Source: Thermodesulfobacteriota bacterium
GTDB taxonomy: Bacteria > Desulfobacterota_D > UBA1144 > Nemesobacterales > Nemesobacteraceae
NCBI GenBank assembly: GCA_963667625.1
Contig: OY763921.1
Location: forward strand, 1,436,679-1,500,678
Reading direction: 5' to 3'
DNA: 64,000 nucleotides
Shown here in pieces: positions 35,952 to 45,690 of the stretch. A program made the position numbers and the translations under genes. Positions within the stretch are counted from its first letter, which is position 1; every line of letters starts with the position of its first letter. The notes below the pieces were generated by a model. The model did not search any database, was not told the DNA's origin, and saw nothing but the letters and a program-made list of their open reading frames with translations.

Positions 35952-37664
35952 TCAGGCAAGATCCGCAGGCATCATTATCATGTTGTCCATCGATGCACCG
36001 GGGGCTATCATCGGATAAACCATCTCGGTACAATCAACTTCTATTTCCATGAGAACAACCCCCGGAGTGTTAAGGCCTTCCCTGAGAGTGGGCTCAAGCT
36101 CCTCGGGCCTCACCGCCCGAAGGCCGCGGGCTCCAAACGCTTCTGCGAGCTTCACGAAATCCGGCAGCACTTCAAACCGAGATGCCGAGTAATTGCCCCC
36201 AAAAAACATCGTCTGCCATTGCCTTACCATTCCGTGATGACGGTTGTTGAAAACGATAATCTTAAGATCCAGATTGTTTTCAACCGCAGTCGCAAGTTCC
36301 TGGAAATTCATCTGGAAGCTTCCGTCGCCGGCAACGCATATAACCTGCTCATCGGGTCTTGCGTATTTCGCTCCCATAGCCGCAGGGAAACTGAATCCCA
36401 TGGTTCCCAAGCCCCCCGAGGTAAGATGGGTTCTCGGTCTTTCGAACTTGTAGAACTGGGCTACCCACATCTGGTGCTGACCCACATCGGAAACTATTAT
36501 GGCGTTTCCTTTCGTGAGCTTGTAAAGCATGTCTATGGCGTAGGTAGTTAGAATTTTATCGCTTCCCTGGCAATAGGTGAGCGGGTGCTTCTCGTTCCAG
36601 TCCCGTATCCGCCTGAGCCAGGATTCCCTCCCTTCAAGGTCAATCTCCCCGGGGAGAGCATCGAGTATCTGGCGCAGCACAATTTTGGCATCCCCTACTA
36701 TCGGACACTCAACCGGTATGTTCTTGTCTATCGAGGATGGGTCTATATCTATATGGATAATATCGGCGTTGGGGGCAAACTCTTCGAAGTTCCCGCCCGT
36801 AGCCCTGTCATCAAACCGCCCGCCGATCGAGATAACGAGATCCGATTCGGTAACGGTCATATTGGCGGCGTAGGAACCGTGCATCCCGAGCATGCTTATG
36901 AAAAGCGGATCGCTCGCCGGATAACCCCCCAGACCCATAAGGGTTGAAGCCACAGGTATCTGAAGCCGGTGACAGAACTCAAGCAGTTCATCCGTAGCCC
37001 CGGACCAGATAACTCCTCCACCGGAATAAATAACCGGCTGCTTTGAAGCAAGCAGCATCTCCACAGCTCTTTTTATCTGCGCAGGATTTCCCTTCATAGT
37101 GGGCTTGTAACCTTTGATATCTATCTCGTGATCCTCGGGGATTACAAGCTCGTCTTCTCCTATGAGAACATCCTTGGGCATATCAACCAGAACAGGGCTG
37201 GGTCTTCCGGTGCCGGCTATGTGAAAAGCCTCTTTCATTGCTCTCGGGAGATCCCGGGTTTCCCGCACAAGGTAGTTATGTTTCGTGCAGGGTCTTGTTA
37301 TGCCTATATGGTCGGCTTCCTGGAAGGCATCGCTTCCAAGGTACTGCGTAGGAACCTGCCCCGTAAAGATAACTATGGGAGATGAATCCATCTGCGCCGT
37401 CGCAATGCCGGTAACGGTGTTGGTTGCCGCAGGACCCGAGGTGCAAAGCACCACTCCCGGTTTTCCCGAGGCCCTTGCGTACCCGTCGGCCATGTGCGTA
37501 GCTCCCTGCTCATGCCTCACGAGCACGTGATTTATCCTGTCGGTATAGTCGGTCATCACGTCATAGACCTTGAGAACGTAACCTCCCGGTAGTCCGAAGA
37601 CCACGTCAATACCCTGGTGAAGAAGCGTCTCAAAGAACATCTGTGCGCCGAGCATCTTGGCCAT
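35952..37664 (-). CDS. ilvB: Acetolactate synthase large subunit
   Basis: RHEQGA, TSGPAATN, DVGQHQMW, SGGLGTMG and GDGSFQMN motifs. Confidence 0.95.
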   Translation of the reverse strand: MAKMLGAQMFFETLLHQGIDVVFGLPGGYVLKVYDVMTDYTDRINHVLVRHEQGATHMADGYARASGKPGVVLCTSGPAATNTVTGIATAQMDSSPIVIFTGQVPTQYLGSDAFQEADHIGITRPCTKHNYLVRETRDLPRAMKEAFHIAGTGRPSPVLVDMPKDVLIGEDELVIPEDHEIDIKGYKPTMKGNPAQIKRAVEMLLASKQPVIYSGGGVIWSGATDELLEFCHRLQIPVASTLMGLGGYPASDPLFISMLGMHGSYAANMTVTESDLVISIGGRFDDRATGGNFEEFAPNADIIHIDIDPSSIDKNIPVECPIVGDAKIVLRQILDALPGEIDLEGRESWLRRIRDWNEKHPLTYCQGSDKILTTYAIDMLYKLTKGNAIIVSDVGQHQMWVAQFYKFERPRTHLTSGGLGTMGFSFPAAMGAKYARPDEQVICVAGDGSFQMNFQELATAVENNLDLKIIVFNNRHHGMVRQWQTMFFGGNYSASRFEVLPDFVKLAEAFGARGLRAVRPEELEPTLREGLNTPGVVLMEIEVDCTEMVYPMIAPGASMDNMIMMPADLA

Positions 37665-37759
37665 TTTATTATATCTCCCTGGTTGTTTTTAAAATGCGGA
37701 GTACCAACAACCCATCCGCTTAATTTATCACCGCGCGCATACAACTTCAAGACTGACAG

Positions 37760-37800
37760 GAAAAAAACAACCTTGATTGAAAGGGGAGAGAGGGTTGTTG
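37760..37800 (-). terminator. Possible intrinsic terminator downstream of res
   Basis: Minus strand reads AACAACCCT...AAGGTTGTT followed by a T run. The loop is long. Confidence 0.35.
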
Positions 37801-37818
37801 AAAAACCGGTTTTCTGAT

Positions 37819-40800
37819 TTACGCCCCAATTATCCTGTCTATATGCTCGCAGTTTTCATTCCGGAACACGATATGATGCTCTTCAAAGTTCTTCCTGTTC
37901 CAGGAGCGGTCACCGTAACTCCCACTGAGAGTTTCATACGGTGTTACGGAAATAATGTATGAATCCAAGGTAACACCTCTCTTTCCTCCGTACCCCTTGC
38001 TGATTTCCCAAGAGATTTCCCGCAGGGTCTCATGAAGCCGCGCCTTTTGGTCGTGCTCATACGAAGGTGCGTGGATCATCCCGTGGGGCTCTACGAATAC
38101 GATGCGTTGCATGGTTTCATCCTTTACCCACAGGATAAAGTCAGGATAAAACTTGCTCTCTTCAAAAAATCCAATTCCGATGCCGCGTCCCTGGTTTCTA
38201 AGCAAAAACACCTCTTTGCCGGCAAGTTTCGCGTCCTTTTCACGAGTCCAGAAGACTTTGAGATCGGAAACAAATTCCCGCTCTCCCTTGTTAAGTCCCG
38301 GAGGAAAAACACGTACCCCTTCTTCCAGTTGTTCAAGAAGTAACGGTTGATAGATGTGCCGGTCAAAATGAATGCGTTTCAACCCGGAGGTCTCCTTCTC
38401 ATAGAGAAGATCCGTCTGCTTAACCAGGGTTTCAATTTTTGTGACCATGTCCTCCCTAGATCTTGAAACGCTTACAAGATATTCTCCCTGCTTATCATTC
38501 TCCCCGCTCCTGAAGCTGAGATTCGGGTCTTGTTCGTCAAGTTTTTTGTAGACAAGGTTCTCCATCTCATATTTCTCCCGAGAAACCCTGTAAAAATTGT
38601 CTATATAGTTGCGAAGAAGACCGACCGCTGCCGCCTGAAGAGCTTCCCTATCATGGAACGACTGCGGCCTCACCGTTTCGTCGTTCGCGACAAGAACGCA
38701 CAGGGCACTGCCCATAGACTTTGCCTCCAGTATGTCCCGTAGCGAACCTGATGGCACCACCAAGTTTTGAAGGTTTTTCCGCTCCTTGTAGTCGAGAATA
38801 TCAAGATACGCTTTTTCCCAATCCACCAAGTCAAGACTCTCGGCGGGGATAGGCCTTTCCTGCCCAGAACCTGCCACACCCTCCCTTACTTTGCCGTCAG
38901 CACCTTCGAGCAATTGTACCTTGGGGGCCAAATCAATCCGGGCCCGCACCGCCGAAACGGATTCAAGCATTATCTCTCTTTCCTCAAAACGGTGTCCTTC
39001 CTTCAGTCGAGGCACAACCAGTCCTTTGCCAAAAAATTCCTCGTTGATCCGTATCGGTATTGGCAATTCAACGGCTCCTTCGGTTTCCACCCCCTCCCGC
39101 TCTAGGTAATCCCTAAAGTTCGCCATGTATTCGGCGCGCACCGCGAAGATATTCAGCGTCTCTAAAAGCGGAAGATTTTCGGGGTGAGCACCTTTGAGCG
39201 CAGTGCTGCGCTTGAGACTCAACCCTTTTCCGCGCAGACGAATGCCACGGCCGAAAAGCTGGATAATCTCCGAACCTTCCCTACGGCCTATGTTAAGGAG
39301 ACCCATGTTGGAAACCCTCCAAGAGTTCCACCCTTCCATGAATTTCTTGGCCCCGATGAGTATGTTGATCTTGGTATCAGGAGTATTCACGTTGTCAAAA
39401 AGCGAACCCGCAAAGGCGTCTTCTTCAATAGTCATCCCCATATCGTTATCCTCGACAAGTTTCCTAAATCTCGACGTGTCGCCTATGTAGATGAGCCCGA
39501 AATAGTCATTAGCACCACTGGCCCTGAGTCCGATCTCGCCATCGCCTCCACGGATAAAACAAAGGCGCAGGCCACCGCTTGACTGTGAAAGGAAAACCGT
39601 CTTAAGCATGTCCTCGTAAATTATTCCGGCGGATTGTCCGGTCTCGCGAAGCAACGCGAATCTATCTGCGAACACATCCTCATCGTACGGCGTCCTAAGC
39701 CCTGTCTCGCCCCTTAATATTTTCTCAATTCCCCGAACCGCCCAACCACTCCGGTTACCGAGTACCCTGTGCAGAAAGTGCGCTACGGTCAGAACATCGC
39801 TTCTTGGTTGTCCATTTTTGTTATAGACGGCGTTTACCGTGCCTCCCACAAACACCCAGAGAGGTTTCTCAATATAATAAGGCCGTAATGTGCTTCCGCC
39901 GTCAGTAAAAACCCGCTGCTGTTCGTAAAACGAAAGCAAGTTGCCGAGCATGAGCGTGTCAACGCTGTCACCGGTATATTCACCGGCTTGATTAAGCACA
40001 CGAAAATCCTTGCCGTACCCGTCGCCATAGAAGTAGCGGTAGGAATAGTCAAAAACGATCGCTTTTCCGTATTCCTCCGTAAGATCTCTGTTTCGCGCAG
40101 CGGAGAGGGCTTGGCCGAATGTGGCGCTGTATTCAAACGTGAATCCGGTCGTGGCCAGAGCATCTCGGACTTTGCGCCACGCCTCGCCTCCCGAGCCCTT
40201 ATGTCCCTCGTCAACGAAGATGAGATTGTTCCCTTCAAACGCTTCCACCGGCACGCTCTGACCGCCGCCACGCTTGCGTTCAACCAGCTTGGTGATCTCG
40301 ATGACTCGCACCAAATTCCCTGCACCCAGACTCAGTCCTCCATAGTCCGAATCGAAGCGCCGACAGGGAATGTTTGAGGCCGTCATCTCAGCCATGTGCT
40401 GTTCGCTCAATCCTTCGTTCGGTGTGATCAGCAGGATGTTGTCAAGCGGTACATCATTATAGTGGAGAAACTGCCTGTAGTTGATGTGCAGGATAAGCGT
40501 CTTGCCACCTCCTGTAGCCATCCAGTACGCGAGTTTCTTAAGATCATCTTCAGTGAACGGGGAATACCTCGCTTCACCTCTTAATCTTGCCGCGTTGCGC
40601 TTGGTCACCAGATCGTTAAGCGAGTTTATCAATTGACCTGGACGATGAAATCTCCAGTCCAGAAAAAGTTCGGTATAGAGCGCGGCCAGATACTGAAAAT
40701 AGCGAAGAGTGATCGGCGCCTTTCGATGGGCATTCATGGCCTCAACGTGCTGGCGGATATTCAGGTCATAGCGAAGCAGATCATCCGGGTGGACCTTGAG

Positions 40801-40983
40801 TTTTTCGCCGCGCGACTGAATGCGTAGAGCCACATGGCTTCGGGCGGAAGAATCAAAACCCTCACCCGCTTCCCTTAGATCCTCAAGCAGTTTGTTGTTT
40901 GATTCGTACCCGAACTGGCCGTTCAGCCAAGAAAGCAAAATTAATTGCTGTTCAAGCCGGGCGAGATTAGCGGGTTTAGTCAC
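37819..40983 (-). CDS. res: Type III restriction endonuclease subunit (Res)
   Basis: SF2 motifs YWMATGGGKT, VDEGHK, EYSATF and QLFGRG.RL, plus a C-terminal FYPDFILW...FVEPHG nuclease region. Downstream of mod. Confidence 0.88.
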   Translation of the reverse strand: MTKPANLARLEQQLILLSWLNGQFGYESNNKLLEDLREAGEGFDSSARSHVALRIQSRGEKLKVHPDDLLRYDLNIRQHVEAMNAHRKAPITLRYFQYLAALYTELFLDWRFHRPGQLINSLNDLVTKRNAARLRGEARYSPFTEDDLKKLAYWMATGGGKTLILHINYRQFLHYNDVPLDNILLITPNEGLSEQHMAEMTASNIPCRRFDSDYGGLSLGAGNLVRVIEITKLVERKRGGGQSVPVEAFEGNNLIFVDEGHKGSGGEAWRKVRDALATTGFTFEYSATFGQALSAARNRDLTEEYGKAIVFDYSYRYFYGDGYGKDFRVLNQAGEYTGDSVDTLMLGNLLSFYEQQRVFTDGGSTLRPYYIEKPLWVFVGGTVNAVYNKNGQPRSDVLTVAHFLHRVLGNRSGWAVRGIEKILRGETGLRTPYDEDVFADRFALLRETGQSAGIIYEDMLKTVFLSQSSGGLRLCFIRGGDGEIGLRASGANDYFGLIYIGDTSRFRKLVEDNDMGMTIEEDAFAGSLFDNVNTPDTKINILIGAKKFMEGWNSWRVSNMGLLNIGRREGSEIIQLFGRGIRLRGKGLSLKRSTALKGAHPENLPLLETLNIFAVRAEYMANFRDYLEREGVETEGAVELPIPIRINEEFFGKGLVVPRLKEGHRFEEREIMLESVSAVRARIDLAPKVQLLEGADGKVREGVAGSGQERPIPAESLDLVDWEKAYLDILDYKERKNLQNLVVPSGSLRDILEAKSMGSALCVLVANDETVRPQSFHDREALQAAAVGLLRNYIDNFYRVSREKYEMENLVYKKLDEQDPNLSFRSGENDKQGEYLVSVSRSREDMVTKIETLVKQTDLLYEKETSGLKRIHFDRHIYQPLLLEQLEEGVRVFPPGLNKGEREFVSDLKVFWTREKDAKLAGKEVFLLRNQGRGIGIGFFEESKFYPDFILWVKDETMQRIVFVEPHGMIHAPSYEHDQKARLHETLREISWEISKGYGGKRGVTLDSYIISVTPYETLSGSYGDRSWNRKNFEEHHIVFRNENCEHIDRIIGA

Positions 40984-41542
40984 TCCTTTCTCCGACGATT
41001 GCCTTCAGTTGTTCAATCAGTATCGGCAGGTCGTTCTCCACGATATCCCAGAGAATGTCGAAATCAATGCTGTCGTAGGCGTGCGCCAGCTTGATGCGCA
41101 CACCCGATATTTCCCGCCAAGGAATTTCTGGATGCTCGTCTCGAAACTCTTTGGGAATCCTGCTGCAGGAATCCCCGACGATTTCCACCAGACGTATAAC
41201 CGCTAGATTCAGCATCCGGTTCTCGTCTAAATCCGCTCGGGTACAGCCATGGGTCATTTCCACCGCCTCTTCAAGAACTTTCTGGCGAAAATACGGACTC
41301 AGGCACTGCACCGTGTTGAGGTCCACACGACGTCCCAGAATCTCCGACAGGTCGTCGGGAATCGATCCGAAAAATGCCAGCCCGGGGGTTCGTCCCGCCT
41401 TGAATTCCACCAGTACATCTATGTCACTTTCGGGCGGGACGTCGTCGCGCAACACAGAACCGAACAGAGACAGACGCTTGATACCGTTTTGCCTGCAGAA
41501 CTCCTCAATCTTTTCTTCCGGTATGTCAATCCGGGCGCTCAT
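40976..41542 (-). CDS. Fused MNT nucleotidyltransferase and HEPN (DUF86/HepT-like) protein
   Basis: N half has GSVLRDDVPPESDID (GS-x10-DxD) and LGRRVDL. C half has RLVEIVG, HPEIPW, RIKLAHAY and ILWDIV. Single reading frame. Confidence 0.88.
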   Translation of the reverse strand: MSARIDIPEEKIEEFCRQNGIKRLSLFGSVLRDDVPPESDIDVLVEFKAGRTPGLAFFGSIPDDLSEILGRRVDLNTVQCLSPYFRQKVLEEAVEMTHGCTRADLDENRMLNLAVIRLVEIVGDSCSRIPKEFRDEHPEIPWREISGVRIKLAHAYDSIDFDILWDIVENDLPILIEQLKAIVGERSD

Positions 41543-44500
41543 ACACCTACTCCTGCGAACATACGGGACTTGAACAGCGGCTCCAAGGCCTGAGCATCGG
41601 GAATAAGGGAGTCTCCATTGACAAACACCTCATCCGCTCCATCGGTAAGTTGCAGTCTAGCAACGAAGTCCCGGTCACGTGTGTAGTCCGCCTGCTCCCA
41701 TCCTCCGGTCTCTCGCCAGATCACCGTCACGCCGGATTCTTCACGGTTTTTACCACTGTAAACCAAGTAACGGCGCCCGCCATCACTGTAAACTCGCCGC
41801 ATCTGCACCCGCAATCCCAGCAGGTAATTGAATGTCTCGGGGATATCAGCTACAGTTTCGCGGGTTTCTCCGTCAGAGTGAGTGAACAATTTATAGCTGA
41901 ACGGAGAAGACATCTTTTCCACGTTCAGCAATGTTGCGCTTAGCTTCGTTTCCCATTGCAGCATATACTGGATCAAGTAATCGTCGAACTTGAGCGCGTG
42001 CTGTCCGGCGGCATTGTCAAACTCTATGTTATTCAATGTGTCTTCGTAGGATTCAAGGTGCTGATACTTGACGATTCGGGGACTGCGTTCGGCTTCTTCG
42101 CTGGTAGCCATACGCTTTGGTTTACCACTCTTCCATTCCGGCGAGAACATGGCCTTCTTGATGCGAGGAACCATGATCGTTGTAAAGTACTCATCCATCT
42201 CGACAAGGATGAACTTGATCCGCCATCCATTCTTGCGATTGAAGTTGATAACAGCGTGACCGGTAGTACCGGAGCCGGCAAAGTAATCAAGGATGGTATT
42301 GTTTGAGTTACAACCAATTCTAAGAATTTTCTCAATAAGCCCGGGTGCCTTTGGGAAGGTTACATCCATGGAGTTAAACATGGACCGAAGAATTTCTTTT
42401 CCATTTTCATTGTTAATCTCGTTATCGGTCCAAATAGTTTTCTCTTTTGTAGTTGGGAAGTCTTCGTTTCCAATACGATCTTTTCTGTATACCCGCCAAG
42501 CGCCGGTATTAGCTTGACGGGCAAATACTTCATCTTTTTGACGAACAAGTTTATTGCGCCCCCAAGTCCAGCAACCATCCTCTCCACGAGAATTTATAGG
42601 TAAAATCTCAACGCAAAATTCTTCTGTTTTATCAAGCGATATTGGTCCTCCATCTAATTTTGCGTAGATTGGATAGTATAAATTCGGACGATTTGCCCGG
42701 TTGAATACAGGATTCCTGTTCCGAAGTTCAAGTGCTCTATATCGTCCTTTATTATCGTGCTCGCTATATTCGGCAAGAGCTTTTCCAGTCTTGGGTATTT
42801 TGTTAATCGAGTCTTCGGAGTCAAATAAAGAGAAGGTCAAAATATATTCGTGATTTTTAGCAATAAATTTATCCAATGTCCGACCACGAGGGTTCAGACG
42901 AGCTGCGATGTTCGTAACATGCTGGCCGTTAACAAAAACGGAGTTGATCAGATTTGTTAATGTACCTACTTCATTATCATCAATAGATACAAACAGACAC
43001 CCATCTGATGAAAACAATCTCATGGATGCAACGAGTCGATCAGAAATCATGGACAACCAAGAACTGCGTTGATATCTGTCCTTATAGATGAATCCGTCGT
43101 TTCCAGTGTTATATGGTGGGTCAATATAAACACACTTGATTCTCTCTTGATAACGCGCTTCTAGTATATTCAAGGCCTGAAAGTTCTCGCTACACAGCAA
43201 CAAACCATCTGTCATACCATCCAGATCATCAAAACAGGCGAGGAGCCGGTCAGTAAAATCTTGATTAAAGTGCTTTGTATCGAGCACTAGCGTTGGATGG
43301 TTCTTTAGATAATCAATGCGTTTGCTTGTTTGATCTTTATCTAAGTTGAAGAGATTCGGTTCTTCTTCGTCAATTCCAAAGAGGTTTCGCCACTCTTCCC
43401 ACTGAGGCTCCCAAACAGCAATCTCCGAATGGAAGCTTTCGTCAATAATACCGACCCTGATGCAATAGTGCGTTTCTGTAACGAATTTGCGCTTTTCCCA
43501 AAGCATTTTCTGAAAGCTCTCAATCTGGTCAAGGAAACCGATTATTCGACTTGCGACGGACCTGATGACCCGCATCGTCTGAAACCAACCCTCTGCGTGA
43601 TTTTCTCCAGCAACTTCCATATCATACAGATTCAGCACCTCGTTTTTCAGGTAGAAATCAAGTTCCCGTGAAAGAAACCTCTTAAGGTCCTTATGAATGA
43701 AGAAATCGGACGCATTGCGTCTAGTGTAGTGGTGCAGGTGGTGTTCAAGGAAAGTAACAGTCTGTCCGCTTGAATCCACACGCCGTGCTCCTAGCAGCGC
43801 GGCAAGCGCATCCGGCGGAAGTTCGAGGCTTTCGGGAACCTCTTCCAAGGTTTCCTTGATGATCGCGTCCTGCTGTTGAGTTTTTCCGTAGCTGATACTT
43901 TCCTTACTTGTCAGCGGTCTGTACTCAAAAGCAATGACTATCTCCCGGTTCTTGTCGTTCCAAGCAGTTTCCTTGCTTCGAGGCAAGAAGAACCGTTTGT
44001 CACCCTTGACGTTGTTCTGCTCAACATCCGCCGCCTTTAATTTGAAATGTACGGTAACGCCGTTTGGCGCCTTGTACGAGTAGTCATGGAAGTGCTCAGC
44101 TGTCTTGATGTAGTACTGGTCACTGTTGGCCCAGTGCAAATAGACTTCTTCTCCGTTATAAGGGATAACGTAGCGCTGCCTTCGGGAGTAGCGTCTCTTG
44201 GAGATATAATCGCCATCTTCGTAGTAGCGGCTGAAAAAGCTGTACAAATGATTAAAGATGTTTGTCTCGAGGGCTTCCCCGCTGAGTCCTCGATTTATCC
44301 GGGCTTTAAGAACCAAATATTCCCTGCCTAGAGGTGTTTCTCGGAATCTTTCATCCAGATTGCCATCCGCGTCAACTGCTGCCCGCCCCAGGCCTTCCAG
44401 TAAGCGCGCATGCACATCTTTCAGTTTTTCGGCGGTCTGGGCACGATCAGCCAACCCCCCGCGTTGGAGTTCTTCTCTTATTGCTTGCGGCAGTTCATCA

Positions 44501-44652
44501 TTTATAAAACGTTCTATCGCGTCACGCTTGTAATTCATGATGCGATAGATTCCAAAGTCCAAGTCAACGCAGTCGAACTGGAACAACTCCCGCAAGAGGT
44601 CTTGGAATTTTTTCAGTGATTGATCGTTCGGTTTTTGTTTTACGGCTGACAT
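41539..44652 (-). CDS. mod: Type III modification methyltransferase (Mod, beta class)
   Basis: YIDPPYNTG catalytic motif precedes FPK and DYFAGSGTT (SAM binding). N-terminal DLDFGIYRI motif. Confidence 0.92.
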   Translation of the reverse strand: MSAVKQKPNDQSLKKFQDLLRELFQFDCVDLDFGIYRIMNYKRDAIERFINDELPQAIREELQRGGLADRAQTAEKLKDVHARLLEGLGRAAVDADGNLDERFRETPLGREYLVLKARINRGLSGEALETNIFNHLYSFFSRYYEDGDYISKRRYSRRQRYVIPYNGEEVYLHWANSDQYYIKTAEHFHDYSYKAPNGVTVHFKLKAADVEQNNVKGDKRFFLPRSKETAWNDKNREIVIAFEYRPLTSKESISYGKTQQQDAIIKETLEEVPESLELPPDALAALLGARRVDSSGQTVTFLEHHLHHYTRRNASDFFIHKDLKRFLSRELDFYLKNEVLNLYDMEVAGENHAEGWFQTMRVIRSVASRIIGFLDQIESFQKMLWEKRKFVTETHYCIRVGIIDESFHSEIAVWEPQWEEWRNLFGIDEEEPNLFNLDKDQTSKRIDYLKNHPTLVLDTKHFNQDFTDRLLACFDDLDGMTDGLLLCSENFQALNILEARYQERIKCVYIDPPYNTGNDGFIYKDRYQRSSWLSMISDRLVASMRLFSSDGCLFVSIDDNEVGTLTNLINSVFVNGQHVTNIAARLNPRGRTLDKFIAKNHEYILTFSLFDSEDSINKIPKTGKALAEYSEHDNKGRYRALELRNRNPVFNRANRPNLYYPIYAKLDGGPISLDKTEEFCVEILPINSRGEDGCWTWGRNKLVRQKDEVFARQANTGAWRVYRKDRIGNEDFPTTKEKTIWTDNEINNENGKEILRSMFNSMDVTFPKAPGLIEKILRIGCNSNNTILDYFAGSGTTGHAVINFNRKNGWRIKFILVEMDEYFTTIMVPRIKKAMFSPEWKSGKPKRMATSEEAERSPRIVKYQHLESYEDTLNNIEFDNAAGQHALKFDDYLIQYMLQWETKLSATLLNVEKMSSPFSYKLFTHSDGETRETVADIPETFNYLLGLRVQMRRVYSDGGRRYLVYSGKNREESGVTVIWRETGGWEQADYTRDRDFVARLQLTDGADEVFVNGDSLIPDAQALEPLFKSRMFAGVGV

Positions 44653-45009
44653 CCGGATTTTCTTTCCTGAGATACCAGAAAAAATGTGGCAACCTGCTCG
44701 GTAAGAATTTTCATCATAAGCATTTAACTAGCAGACTAGTTGCGACTTGTTGAGATCTTCAAGCGGTTTGGGACTCGGCATCCGAAGCTTTTCGCATCTT
44801 AAGCAGTGTTAATAATGAGTTCCGGGCTCCCGCAATATTTCGTGAGTAAACAAAGAAATTCTCTCGACCAACACTGAAAAACCCCAGAGGTACCGGAATG
44901 ATCTCAATTCCACTTCTTTGAGGTCTAATTATAACTAAGCATAGTCCTAGTGAAAAGATATATCGGACTAAGTGCCGGCAATATATCAGCAGGGAAAAAA
45001 TTGCTGCCG

Positions 45010-45690
45010 TCACTTTGGTGATCCCACTTCGCGCTCCGCTGCGGAGCGACGAAGATAGAAAGGAGTCAGGGTGAAGGGATCGCCCTTTTGTCCGGAGAGA
45101 ATCTTTTTTCTCCCCAGAAGCGCACAGCCAGACGCCCTCGGGGTGTTTAAATTCGCGGGCAGAAAAACGGCAGTCTCTCCCAGAGCATTCCGTATAAGAT
45201 TTGCGTGCAGCATGGCTCCGCTTCCCACAAAAACGGTCTTTTTTCTCACCTCACCACACACAGATTCCGGTGTGGCAATTTCCGCGGGGTTTACCTCTTC
45301 GCCTTTGGGATCATAAAATGAAAAGAAAACCTCCCCTCTGCCCGCATCGGTCATGACGCACACATCGTTTCCGCACCAAAGCGCGTTTGAGGCAAGAATC
45401 TCAAGTGAGGGAACTCCCGCAAGATCCGCTCCCAAAGAATAGCAAAGCGCCTTTGCGGTGGATACCCCTATGCGAAGAGAGGTAAAGGAACCCGGCCCCG
45501 TTGACACGCAAACCGCGTCCAGATCGTTTTTCCCGAGTCCGCAATCCGAAAGAAGCCGCTCGATCGTGGGAATAAGTACCTCGTTATGCCTTGGACCGGT
45601 GTTGAAAACATATTCGCAAAGAAGCGCGTCGTCATCGGATACTGACACGCTTCCCGAGAAAGTAGACGTTTCGATTCCCAGAATTTTCAT
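45010..45690 (-). CDS. tsaB: tRNA t6A biosynthesis protein TsaB
   Basis: ILGIETS, GPGSFTSLRIG and PFYLR motifs. Confidence 0.94.
   Translation of the reverse strand: MKILGIETSTFSGSVSVSDDDALLCEYVFNTGPRHNEVLIPTIERLLSDCGLGKNDLDAVCVSTGPGSFTSLRIGVSTAKALCYSLGADLAGVPSLEILASNALWCGNDVCVMTDAGRGEVFFSFYDPKGEEVNPAEIATPESVCGEVRKKTVFVGSGAMLHANLIRNALGETAVFLPANLNTPRASGCALLGRKKILSGQKGDPFTLTPFYLRRSAAEREVGSPK

Follow-up and report, generated by a model that had tools for sequence, protein, structure and literature searches.

A probably attenuated mntA-hepT fusion between mod and res of a type III restriction-modification operon in a Thermodesulfobacteriota bacterium

The type VII toxin-antitoxin (TA) modules MntA/HepT (Shewanella SO_3165/SO_3166 and Aphanizomenon MNT/HEPN) are among the described systems closest to the gene that is the subject of this study, an MNT-HEPN open reading frame (ORF) between mod and res of a type III restriction-modification (R-M) operon. 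The operon lies on contig OY763921.1 of a Thermodesulfobacteriota bacterium (assembly GCA_963667625.1), in a stretch of 64,000 nucleotides (nt; positions 1,436,679 to 1,500,678 of the forward strand) that is called the window below. In type VII modules MntA AMPylates a tyrosine beside the RNase motif of HepT (PMC7641770). The ORF in the window encodes the same two domains with the motifs GS-x10-DxD and R-x4-H-x-Y (the wording of the motifs, GS-x10-DxD and RxxxxHxY, is taken from PMC13000451), and its relatives likewise have mntA first, overlapping hepT. It differs from type VII modules in that the two genes have been fused by a 70-nt deletion, that the first HEPN helix is apparently missing, and that it is located within an R-M operon instead of standing alone. 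A natural fusion of this kind was described from Shewanella by Yao et al. (2026, PMC13000451), namely FhepTA, a fused MNT-HEPN protein of 276 amino acids (aa) that acts as a regulated toxin and needs its linker. FhepTA and the window protein are both single polypeptides with an N-terminal MNT and a C-terminal HEPN part and are closely related to split pairs. However, in the account of Yao et al. both domains of FhepTA are complete and a hydrophobic linker is required for self-AMPylation, whereas the window protein has only 188 aa, no linker and a truncated HEPN domain. It also belongs to a different, smaller MntA/HepT subfamily, with the fusion in one lineage only.

PrrC, encoded in the type Ic EcoprrI hsd operon, is likewise a HEPN RNase whose gene is found inside an R-M operon. 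According to the passages on PrrC in Anantharaman et al. (2013, PMC3710099), it carries an ABC ATPase domain, has no cognate antitoxin and is kept latent by the R-M proteins of a type I system, whereas the window gene comes with an MNT antitoxin part, has no ATPase domain and belongs to a type III operon. HEPN genes embedded in R-M operons have already been described: Anantharaman et al. linked at least 16 HEPN clades to R-M systems, reported that MNT-associated PF05168 HEPN genes cluster with R-M operons, and by analogy with PrrC proposed R-M-linked HEPN proteins as a back-up as early as 2013. Payne et al. (2024 preprint) found that Hma, BREX, DISARM and type I R-M systems often contain nested defence genes, which share the orientation of the host in 96.7% of cases, and the PDC candidates of PADLOC were derived from such nested genes ('guilt by embedding'). 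Host-system orientation and GmrSD-like cargo recur in the mod-res slot described below. Fic/Doc and RhuM beside R-M-linked HEPN genes are reported by Anantharaman et al. only, and neither word occurs in the Payne preprint. The relevant passages of both papers contain no type III mod-res slot, no translational packing of such a slot and no cassette turnover with toxin decay, and our literature searches, with the supplements of these two papers outside their scope, returned no report of a type III system with mntA/hepT in its mod-res gap. The locus is a fresh example of a known habit of defence operons, the carrying of extra toxin cargo, and with it type III R-M operons join the defence systems with nested toxin cargo.

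A reading of the window from its letters alone, made without database searches (the sequence-only reading), had proposed a type III operon with an MNT-HEPN ORF between mod and res. The gene order, the coordinates and the overlapping stops and starts that it gave are all present in the sequence, and the identity of the three ORFs was borne out by Pfam and PADLOC matches (Table 1). The stop codon of mod overlaps the start of the middle ORF in an ATGA at 41539-41542, and the stop of the middle ORF overlaps the GTG of res in GTGACTAA at 40976-40983. This sequence is real and not an assembly artefact, since contigs of four public runs from two studies, which may include the source sample, show no differing letter over window positions 37600-45100 and bridge the middle gene.

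On sequence comparison, the middle gene is a lineage-specific derived fusion of a two-gene mntA-hepT cassette. Its product is a singleton in a search of 5.8 billion clusters (best 120 of 1243 hits listed), and the closest matches among those listed are separate proteins, namely MntA of 107-122 aa with 86-87% identity to the N-terminal half and HepT of 114 aa with 82-83% identity to the C-terminal half. Aligned with these proteins, it follows MntA to ...RQKVLE and then continues with HepT from EAVEM..., so that the MntA tail and approximately the first 19 residues of HepT are absent. DNA alignments with two related loci (L007 and L093, both with two separate genes, antitoxin first) show one 70-nt gap, bounded in these relatives by the microhomology AAGA(A/G)GC, and 70 nt is the length that brings the mntA and hepT frames together. 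The Pfam HepT match is shortened in the same way, with 94 residues spanning 117 profile positions (4-120). A 70-nt microhomology deletion removed nine codons from the end of mntA and some 19 from the start of hepT, the latter probably encoding HEPN helix 1, and joined the two frames into one chain. Another 22 relatives that appeared 'fused' as single full-length tblastn matches contain one to six in-frame stops each, and are therefore not fusions.

Both domains can be recognised in the fused protein. Pfam assigns residues 11-94 to NTP_transf_2 (PF01909, 1.8e-13) and residues 89-182 to HepT-like (PF01934, 2.5e-23); these were the only domains found in the middle ORF, with no ABC ATPase domain and no fusion to Res or Mod. 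The MNT half also matches PADLOC PDC-S09 (3.6e-26). The MNT catalytic motif is present, and the HEPN motif reads R149 IKLA H154 A Y156, with Y156 as the acceptor tyrosine. Scores for the NCBIfam equivalogs MntA_antitoxin (39 bits) and HepT_toxin (22.6 bits) are below the cut-off of 60. A sequence search of the PDB gave the MNT structure 1wot as sole match, while Foldseek matched the solved complexes 7bxo, 6m6u/v/w and 7aer, the matches to the HEPN part being uninformative on helix 1. The AF2 model (pLDDT 78.4, block pLDDT 61 at the junction) has HEPN helices at residues 109-127, 142-154 and 161-183. As the Rx4-6H motif ends helix 3 in HEPN domains (PMC3710099), the missing element would be helix 1 of the four-helix core, which is incomplete both in the alignment, where about 19 N-terminal HepT residues are absent, and in the model.

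Table 1. Coordinates of the R-M operon, its fused middle gene and the island edges in the window
Feature	Position	Strand	Details
mod, type III DNA methyltransferase	41539..44652	-	1037 aa, ATG start; methyltransferase domain residues 505-826, DPPYN motif
Fused mntA'-'hepT ORF	40976..41542	-	188 aa + stop, ATG start
MNT (MntA) part	41261..41542	-	residues 1-94; GS-x10-DxD = G28 S29 ... D40 x D42
HEPN (HepT) part	40979..41260	-	residues 95-188; apparently without helix 1; R149-x4-H154-x-Y156 intact
Junction of the 70-nt deletion fusing mntA and hepT	41273..41274	-	single gap on alignment of the DNA to L007 and to L093
res, type III restriction subunit	37819..40983	-	1054 aa, GTG start; SF2 motifs GGGKT, DEGH; C-terminal YPDF...EPHG
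R-M island of ~7.2 kb in the tsaB-ilvB (AHAS) spacer	37768..44990	-	empty-site alignment with both junctions
Left T-rich direct repeat TTTTTTCCCT	44991..45000	-	island edge; single copy in empty site
Right direct repeat copy TTTTTTTCCT	37758..37767	-	9/10 bases identical to left copy

From alignment and model, the fused chain is probably a toxin-attenuated relic. The open frame still ends at the natural hepT stop, overlapping the GTG of res, and the only Shine-Dalgarno-like sequence, AAGGAG, directly abuts this GTG without a spacer. Because the frame ends at the res start and a correctly spaced Shine-Dalgarno sequence is lacking there, the fused ORF may persist as the route by which ribosomes are delivered to res. 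The sequence-only reading had suggested that the single-gene MNT-HEPN may be a built-in guard; it is instead a derived 70-nt deletion fusion that appears to lack the first HEPN helix. For the annotation of this genome we suggest describing the 'MNT-HEPN gene' as an mntA-hepT derivative that is fused and probably attenuated, and avoiding the label of a new guard protein.

The mod-res junction is a recurrent cargo slot in this R-M family. We compared 80 loci from many phyla that encode relatives of Res (52-79% identity), 65 of them informative for the gap between mod and res. No insert was found in 35 of the 65 (gap of at most 185 nt), while 25 contained mntA/hepT or remnants thereof, 22 of these with both genes or recognisable pieces of both and three with partial remains. 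The partial remains occur together with Fic genes and consist of a degenerate HEPN only (L033) or of MNT only (L055, L066). The other five loci carry other cargo only, namely RhuM (L026), GmrSD (L013), two Fic genes (L074), a GNAT protein plus an unknown one (L063) and a 23S-rRNA-IVP protein (L056); altogether, Fic genes were found in the slot of six loci. An mntA-hepT pair is also present at L162:2378-7153 between a 700-aa N6_N4 methyltransferase gene and a ResIII gene, which represent a different, shorter type III-like family. The mod-[MNT/HEPN]-res synteny for which the sequence-only reading had proposed a search does therefore exist, in 25 of 65 operons and in this unrelated family, but more of the operons (35) have no insert at all.

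Junctions in the slot are short, with distances that rest on heuristic start calls: mod and res overlap or lie at most 5 nt apart in 26 of the 35 insert-free operons, 15 of 18 hepT-res junctions fall within 5 nt, and the 11 mod-mntA junctions with an unambiguous start show a 4-nt overlap or a distance within 3 nt. The overlaps that had suggested translational coupling in the sequence-only reading are real but not special to this locus, because tight junctions are the rule across the R-M family. Different mntA/hepT cassettes have entered the slot or been exchanged several times, as have Fic/Doc, RhuM, GmrSD and others, and this cargo always lies in operon orientation with almost no intergenic space.

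Some operons have more elaborate cargo. Two Fic/Doc genes stand in series in the slot of L074, L061 and L066 (operons from Latescibacterota and Gemmatimonadota), and additional slot genes were a proteasome-like one in L066 and one with a metallo-beta-lactamase fold in L055. A second, unrelated MNT gene was detected upstream of the DUF86-type pair at L058:4531-5317, L041:4279-5341 and L028:4897-5277. In L058 and L041 it is accompanied by a PF05168-type HEPN gene, for which L028 was not scanned, and these two loci have tandem TA modules between mod and res.

The embedded mntA/hepT pairs are polyphyletic. Of the 74 pairs in a tree built from concatenated sequences, 16 are embedded, and these are distributed over at least six groups among free-standing pairs. 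An approximately unbiased (AU) test rejects a single clade of embedded pairs (delta log-likelihood 427.5, p 1.9e-58). On the tree of Res (68 rows) the mntA/hepT state requires at least 11 changes over well-supported branches and is nevertheless clustered, an equally low number being reached in 5 of 500 shuffles. The Res proteins of L068 and L070 fall into one clade (100*), but the two pairs lie in different starred clades; cassettes have therefore been exchanged within the slot. None of 80 sampled loci with related pairs encodes this family's Mod or Res within 4.5 kb of the pair. In 58 of these loci the ORFs closest to the pair were mostly housekeeping ones, among them RecR six times and FtsW three times, with occasional defence genes. 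The pair in the window is nearest to the free-standing mntA-hepT of L093 (86% identity). There, the hepT stop is followed by a stretch of about 40 nt with homology to the res 5' end (L093:2331-2375), and the start is preceded by about 12 nt of the mod 3' end; judging by these traces the L093 pair is a relic of a lost R-M operon.

Decay of the cassette affects mainly the toxin. Of the 26 operons with a cassette or its remains (25 loci and the window), 16 retain both genes at full length and with both motifs, and two have a changed HepT motif (R to Q in L047, Y to S in L068). HepT is broken in the remaining eight, by an internal deletion (L003), a truncation (L006), a frameshift (L028), loss of the motif together with a missing MNT (L033), reduction to MNT only (L055, L066) or to a stub (L062), and by the fusion in the window; some of these breaks, in metagenome-assembled genomes, could be sequencing errors. 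Ten of the 26 operons thus have a damaged or catalytically altered HepT, whereas MntA keeps GS-x10-DxD in 25 of 26. In five of the eight broken cases the ORF still ends at the natural hepT stop beside res.

We consider it probable that the type VII TA module is autonomous cargo of the acquired island, lodged in a mod-res slot with coupled translation and attenuated in this lineage. MntA would AMPylate the tyrosine of RxxxxHxY and thereby silence HepT, which would make the cassette self-contained. An intact cassette would most likely serve as an autonomous abortive-infection or addiction back-up, with its synthesis tied to the ribosomes that translate the R-M operon. Several points weigh against this interpretation or parts of it. 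The catalytic residues R149 and H154, the acceptor Y156 and the MNT GS-x10-DxD motif are all intact, and neither a stop nor a frameshift has accumulated since the deletion. Changes in the HEPN part on the window lineage, nine synonymous and five non-synonymous, do not make relaxed selection visible, although these numbers are small. Fused MNT-HEPN proteins can be functional regulated toxins, as reported for FhepTA, and the chain may still work. The loss of helix 1 is deduced from alignment and model, and translational coupling from geometry only. Moreover, the same type of cassette in the same slot in at least six lineages and in the L162 family could reflect a selected partnership with R-M instead of hitch-hiking.

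With all its catalytic and acceptor motifs intact, the 188-aa protein could also be a working single-chain TA of the FhepTA kind, in which MNT would self-AMPylate Y156 and hinder dimerisation of HEPN until ATP depletion or another infection cue frees the RNase. This would agree with the open frame, the lack of an excess of non-synonymous change in the HEPN part, the stable presence of the fused gene in contigs of four runs from two studies, a moderately confident AF2 model (pLDDT 78.4), and the passages of PMC13000451 in which MntA-HepT fusions, whether natural or engineered, are regulated and not toxic. However, HEPN helix 1 and a linker are apparently both missing here, while FhepTA has two complete domains in its 276 aa and, according to the same source, lost AMPylation when its 8-aa linker was deleted. 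The protein is furthermore a singleton among the best 120 of 1243 hits listed, originates from a recent deletion and not from a conserved architecture, and HEPN domains fused to MNT are typically inactive according to Anantharaman et al. (PMC3710099). We therefore regard a working single-chain TA as rather unlikely. Retention of the antitoxin while decay hits the toxin first would also be expected if the cassette were purely selfish, stabilising itself and the R-M island by post-segregational killing without a role in phage defence and decaying once the island is fixed. Mobile, polyphyletic cassettes fit such addiction, as does the free pair of L093 with its ~40 nt of the res 5' end as relic of a lost operon. 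Neither the frequent use of this exact slot and orientation nor the defence-type nature of the alternative cargo (GmrSD, Fic, RhuM) is explained by it, and the MNT half matches PDC-S09, a PADLOC phage-defence candidate that was derived from genes embedded in defence systems; we judge pure addiction to be unlikely.

The recurrence at one position, in 25 of 65 operons and in the unrelated type III family of L162, with tight junctions in all cases, would fit a PrrC-like guard. In such a guard, contact with Mod or Res would keep HepT latent, alone or together with MntA, until the type III enzyme is inactivated by an anti-restriction protein of a phage and HepT is freed as a built-in second line of defence. 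The other cargo of the slot, Fic/Doc and RhuM, is the same set that is reported in PMC3710099 beside PrrC/RloC-type HEPN genes in R-M operons, and the analogy to PrrC has been proposed there for R-M-linked HEPN genes in general. Yet the module brings its own antitoxin, which PrrC does not have, there is neither a fusion to Res or Mod nor an ABC ATPase domain, related pairs are mostly found beside housekeeping genes (0 of 80 sampled with this Mod or Res), 35 of 65 operons are insert-free, the embedded pairs are polyphyletic, and 10 of 26 operons, the window among them, have a damaged or altered HepT. Of the type III analogue of the PrrC guard that the sequence-only reading had put forward, the presence of MNT and HEPN within a type III operon stands, whereas the guard itself is unsupported. 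That reading had itself named a sporadic insert, freely swapped for unrelated cargo, as evidence to the contrary, and this is largely what we observed: 35 of 65 operons without insert, Fic, RhuM, GmrSD, IVP and GNAT cargo in others, and pairs of several origins. We consider a guard held by protein contact improbable. Another speculative possibility is that the junction is a dedicated, translationally slaved cargo bay, where toxin modules (MntA/HepT, Fic/Doc, RhuM) would be made only by ribosomes that have passed mod, and Res only by those that have passed the cargo. Phage interference with the expression or the integrity of the R-M operon would then shift the balance of toxin and antitoxin and trigger abortive infection. 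We see little likelihood in this proposal; if true, it would provide a type III counterpart of PrrC-EcoprrI that works through coupled synthesis instead of protein contact, and the repeated independent capture of the same type of cassette would be a trace of selection for this coupling. The empty slot, the intact mntA-hepT, the swapped cassettes, the orphan mntA and the deletion fusion form a natural series for study, which could test whether embedded TA modules cooperate with restriction or only ride along.

The flanking genes have features of a type III system, with mod upstream of res on the same strand in the window and in all 65 informative loci. Mod matches N6_N4_Mtase (PF01555, 1.3e-26) and the PADLOC model MTase_III (PDLC03646, 3.8e-165), and it contains IDPPYN, consistent with an N6/N4 DNA methyltransferase with a DPPY motif. 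No Pfam family was matched by its residues 1 to about 480 (window 43200-44652); this N-terminal part is conserved in the family, and the coverage of the PADLOC model begins at residue 236. Res matches ResIII (PF04851, 3e-9) and PADLOC REase_III (2.1e-147), with GGGKT and DEGH of the superfamily 2 (SF2) helicase/ATPase core conserved over 68 Res sequences. Its C-terminus (window 37819-38100) contains YPDF...EPHG, found in at least 95% of these sequences, as presumed nuclease motif, with a His at the position of the Lys in PD-(D/E)xK nucleases; the Pfam search of Res matched no nuclease family. Within res, at 40489-40542, contigs of the runs X3 and X5 break with unlike loose ends, and the depth in run X3 is 37.4 over the 3' part of res against 15.3 upstream. 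This suggests a co-occurring strain that has the 3' part of res in common and a different sequence from the 5' end of res onward. A scan of 37400-45200 gave seven promoter-like and eight terminator-like sites, no more than in shuffled sequences (7.6 and 8.5).

The operon is a mobile, horizontally acquired island, because Res is sparse in the genus (a relative in 5 of 24 other genomes), because 11 of 13 same-genus loci have an empty site, and because the closest same-genus relative of Res (79% identity, L007 = G022) lies between different neighbours. In the empty sites acetohydroxyacid synthase (AHAS) follows TsaB after about 117 nt; in the remaining two loci no synthase was found within the 1.5 kb fetched. 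Housekeeping genes border the island at both ends, TsaB, RecA and CinA at one and acetolactate synthase, PriA and GlnE at the other. The edges of the island, marked by a T-rich 10-nt direct repeat with 9 of 10 bases identical, resemble those of R-M insertions with target duplication, the repeat being present as a single copy in empty same-genus sites. The island is without a recombinase gene. An 84-aa ORF at 44759-45013 is probably spurious, since it extends across the island junction and overlaps the stop of tsaB, and since no Pfam family matched it. The same genome contains two more MNT/HEPN pairs (L089 and L091, at G000:C1:1304213-1304494 and 1287188-1287478), which are distant from the embedded pair, with 28-45% identity.

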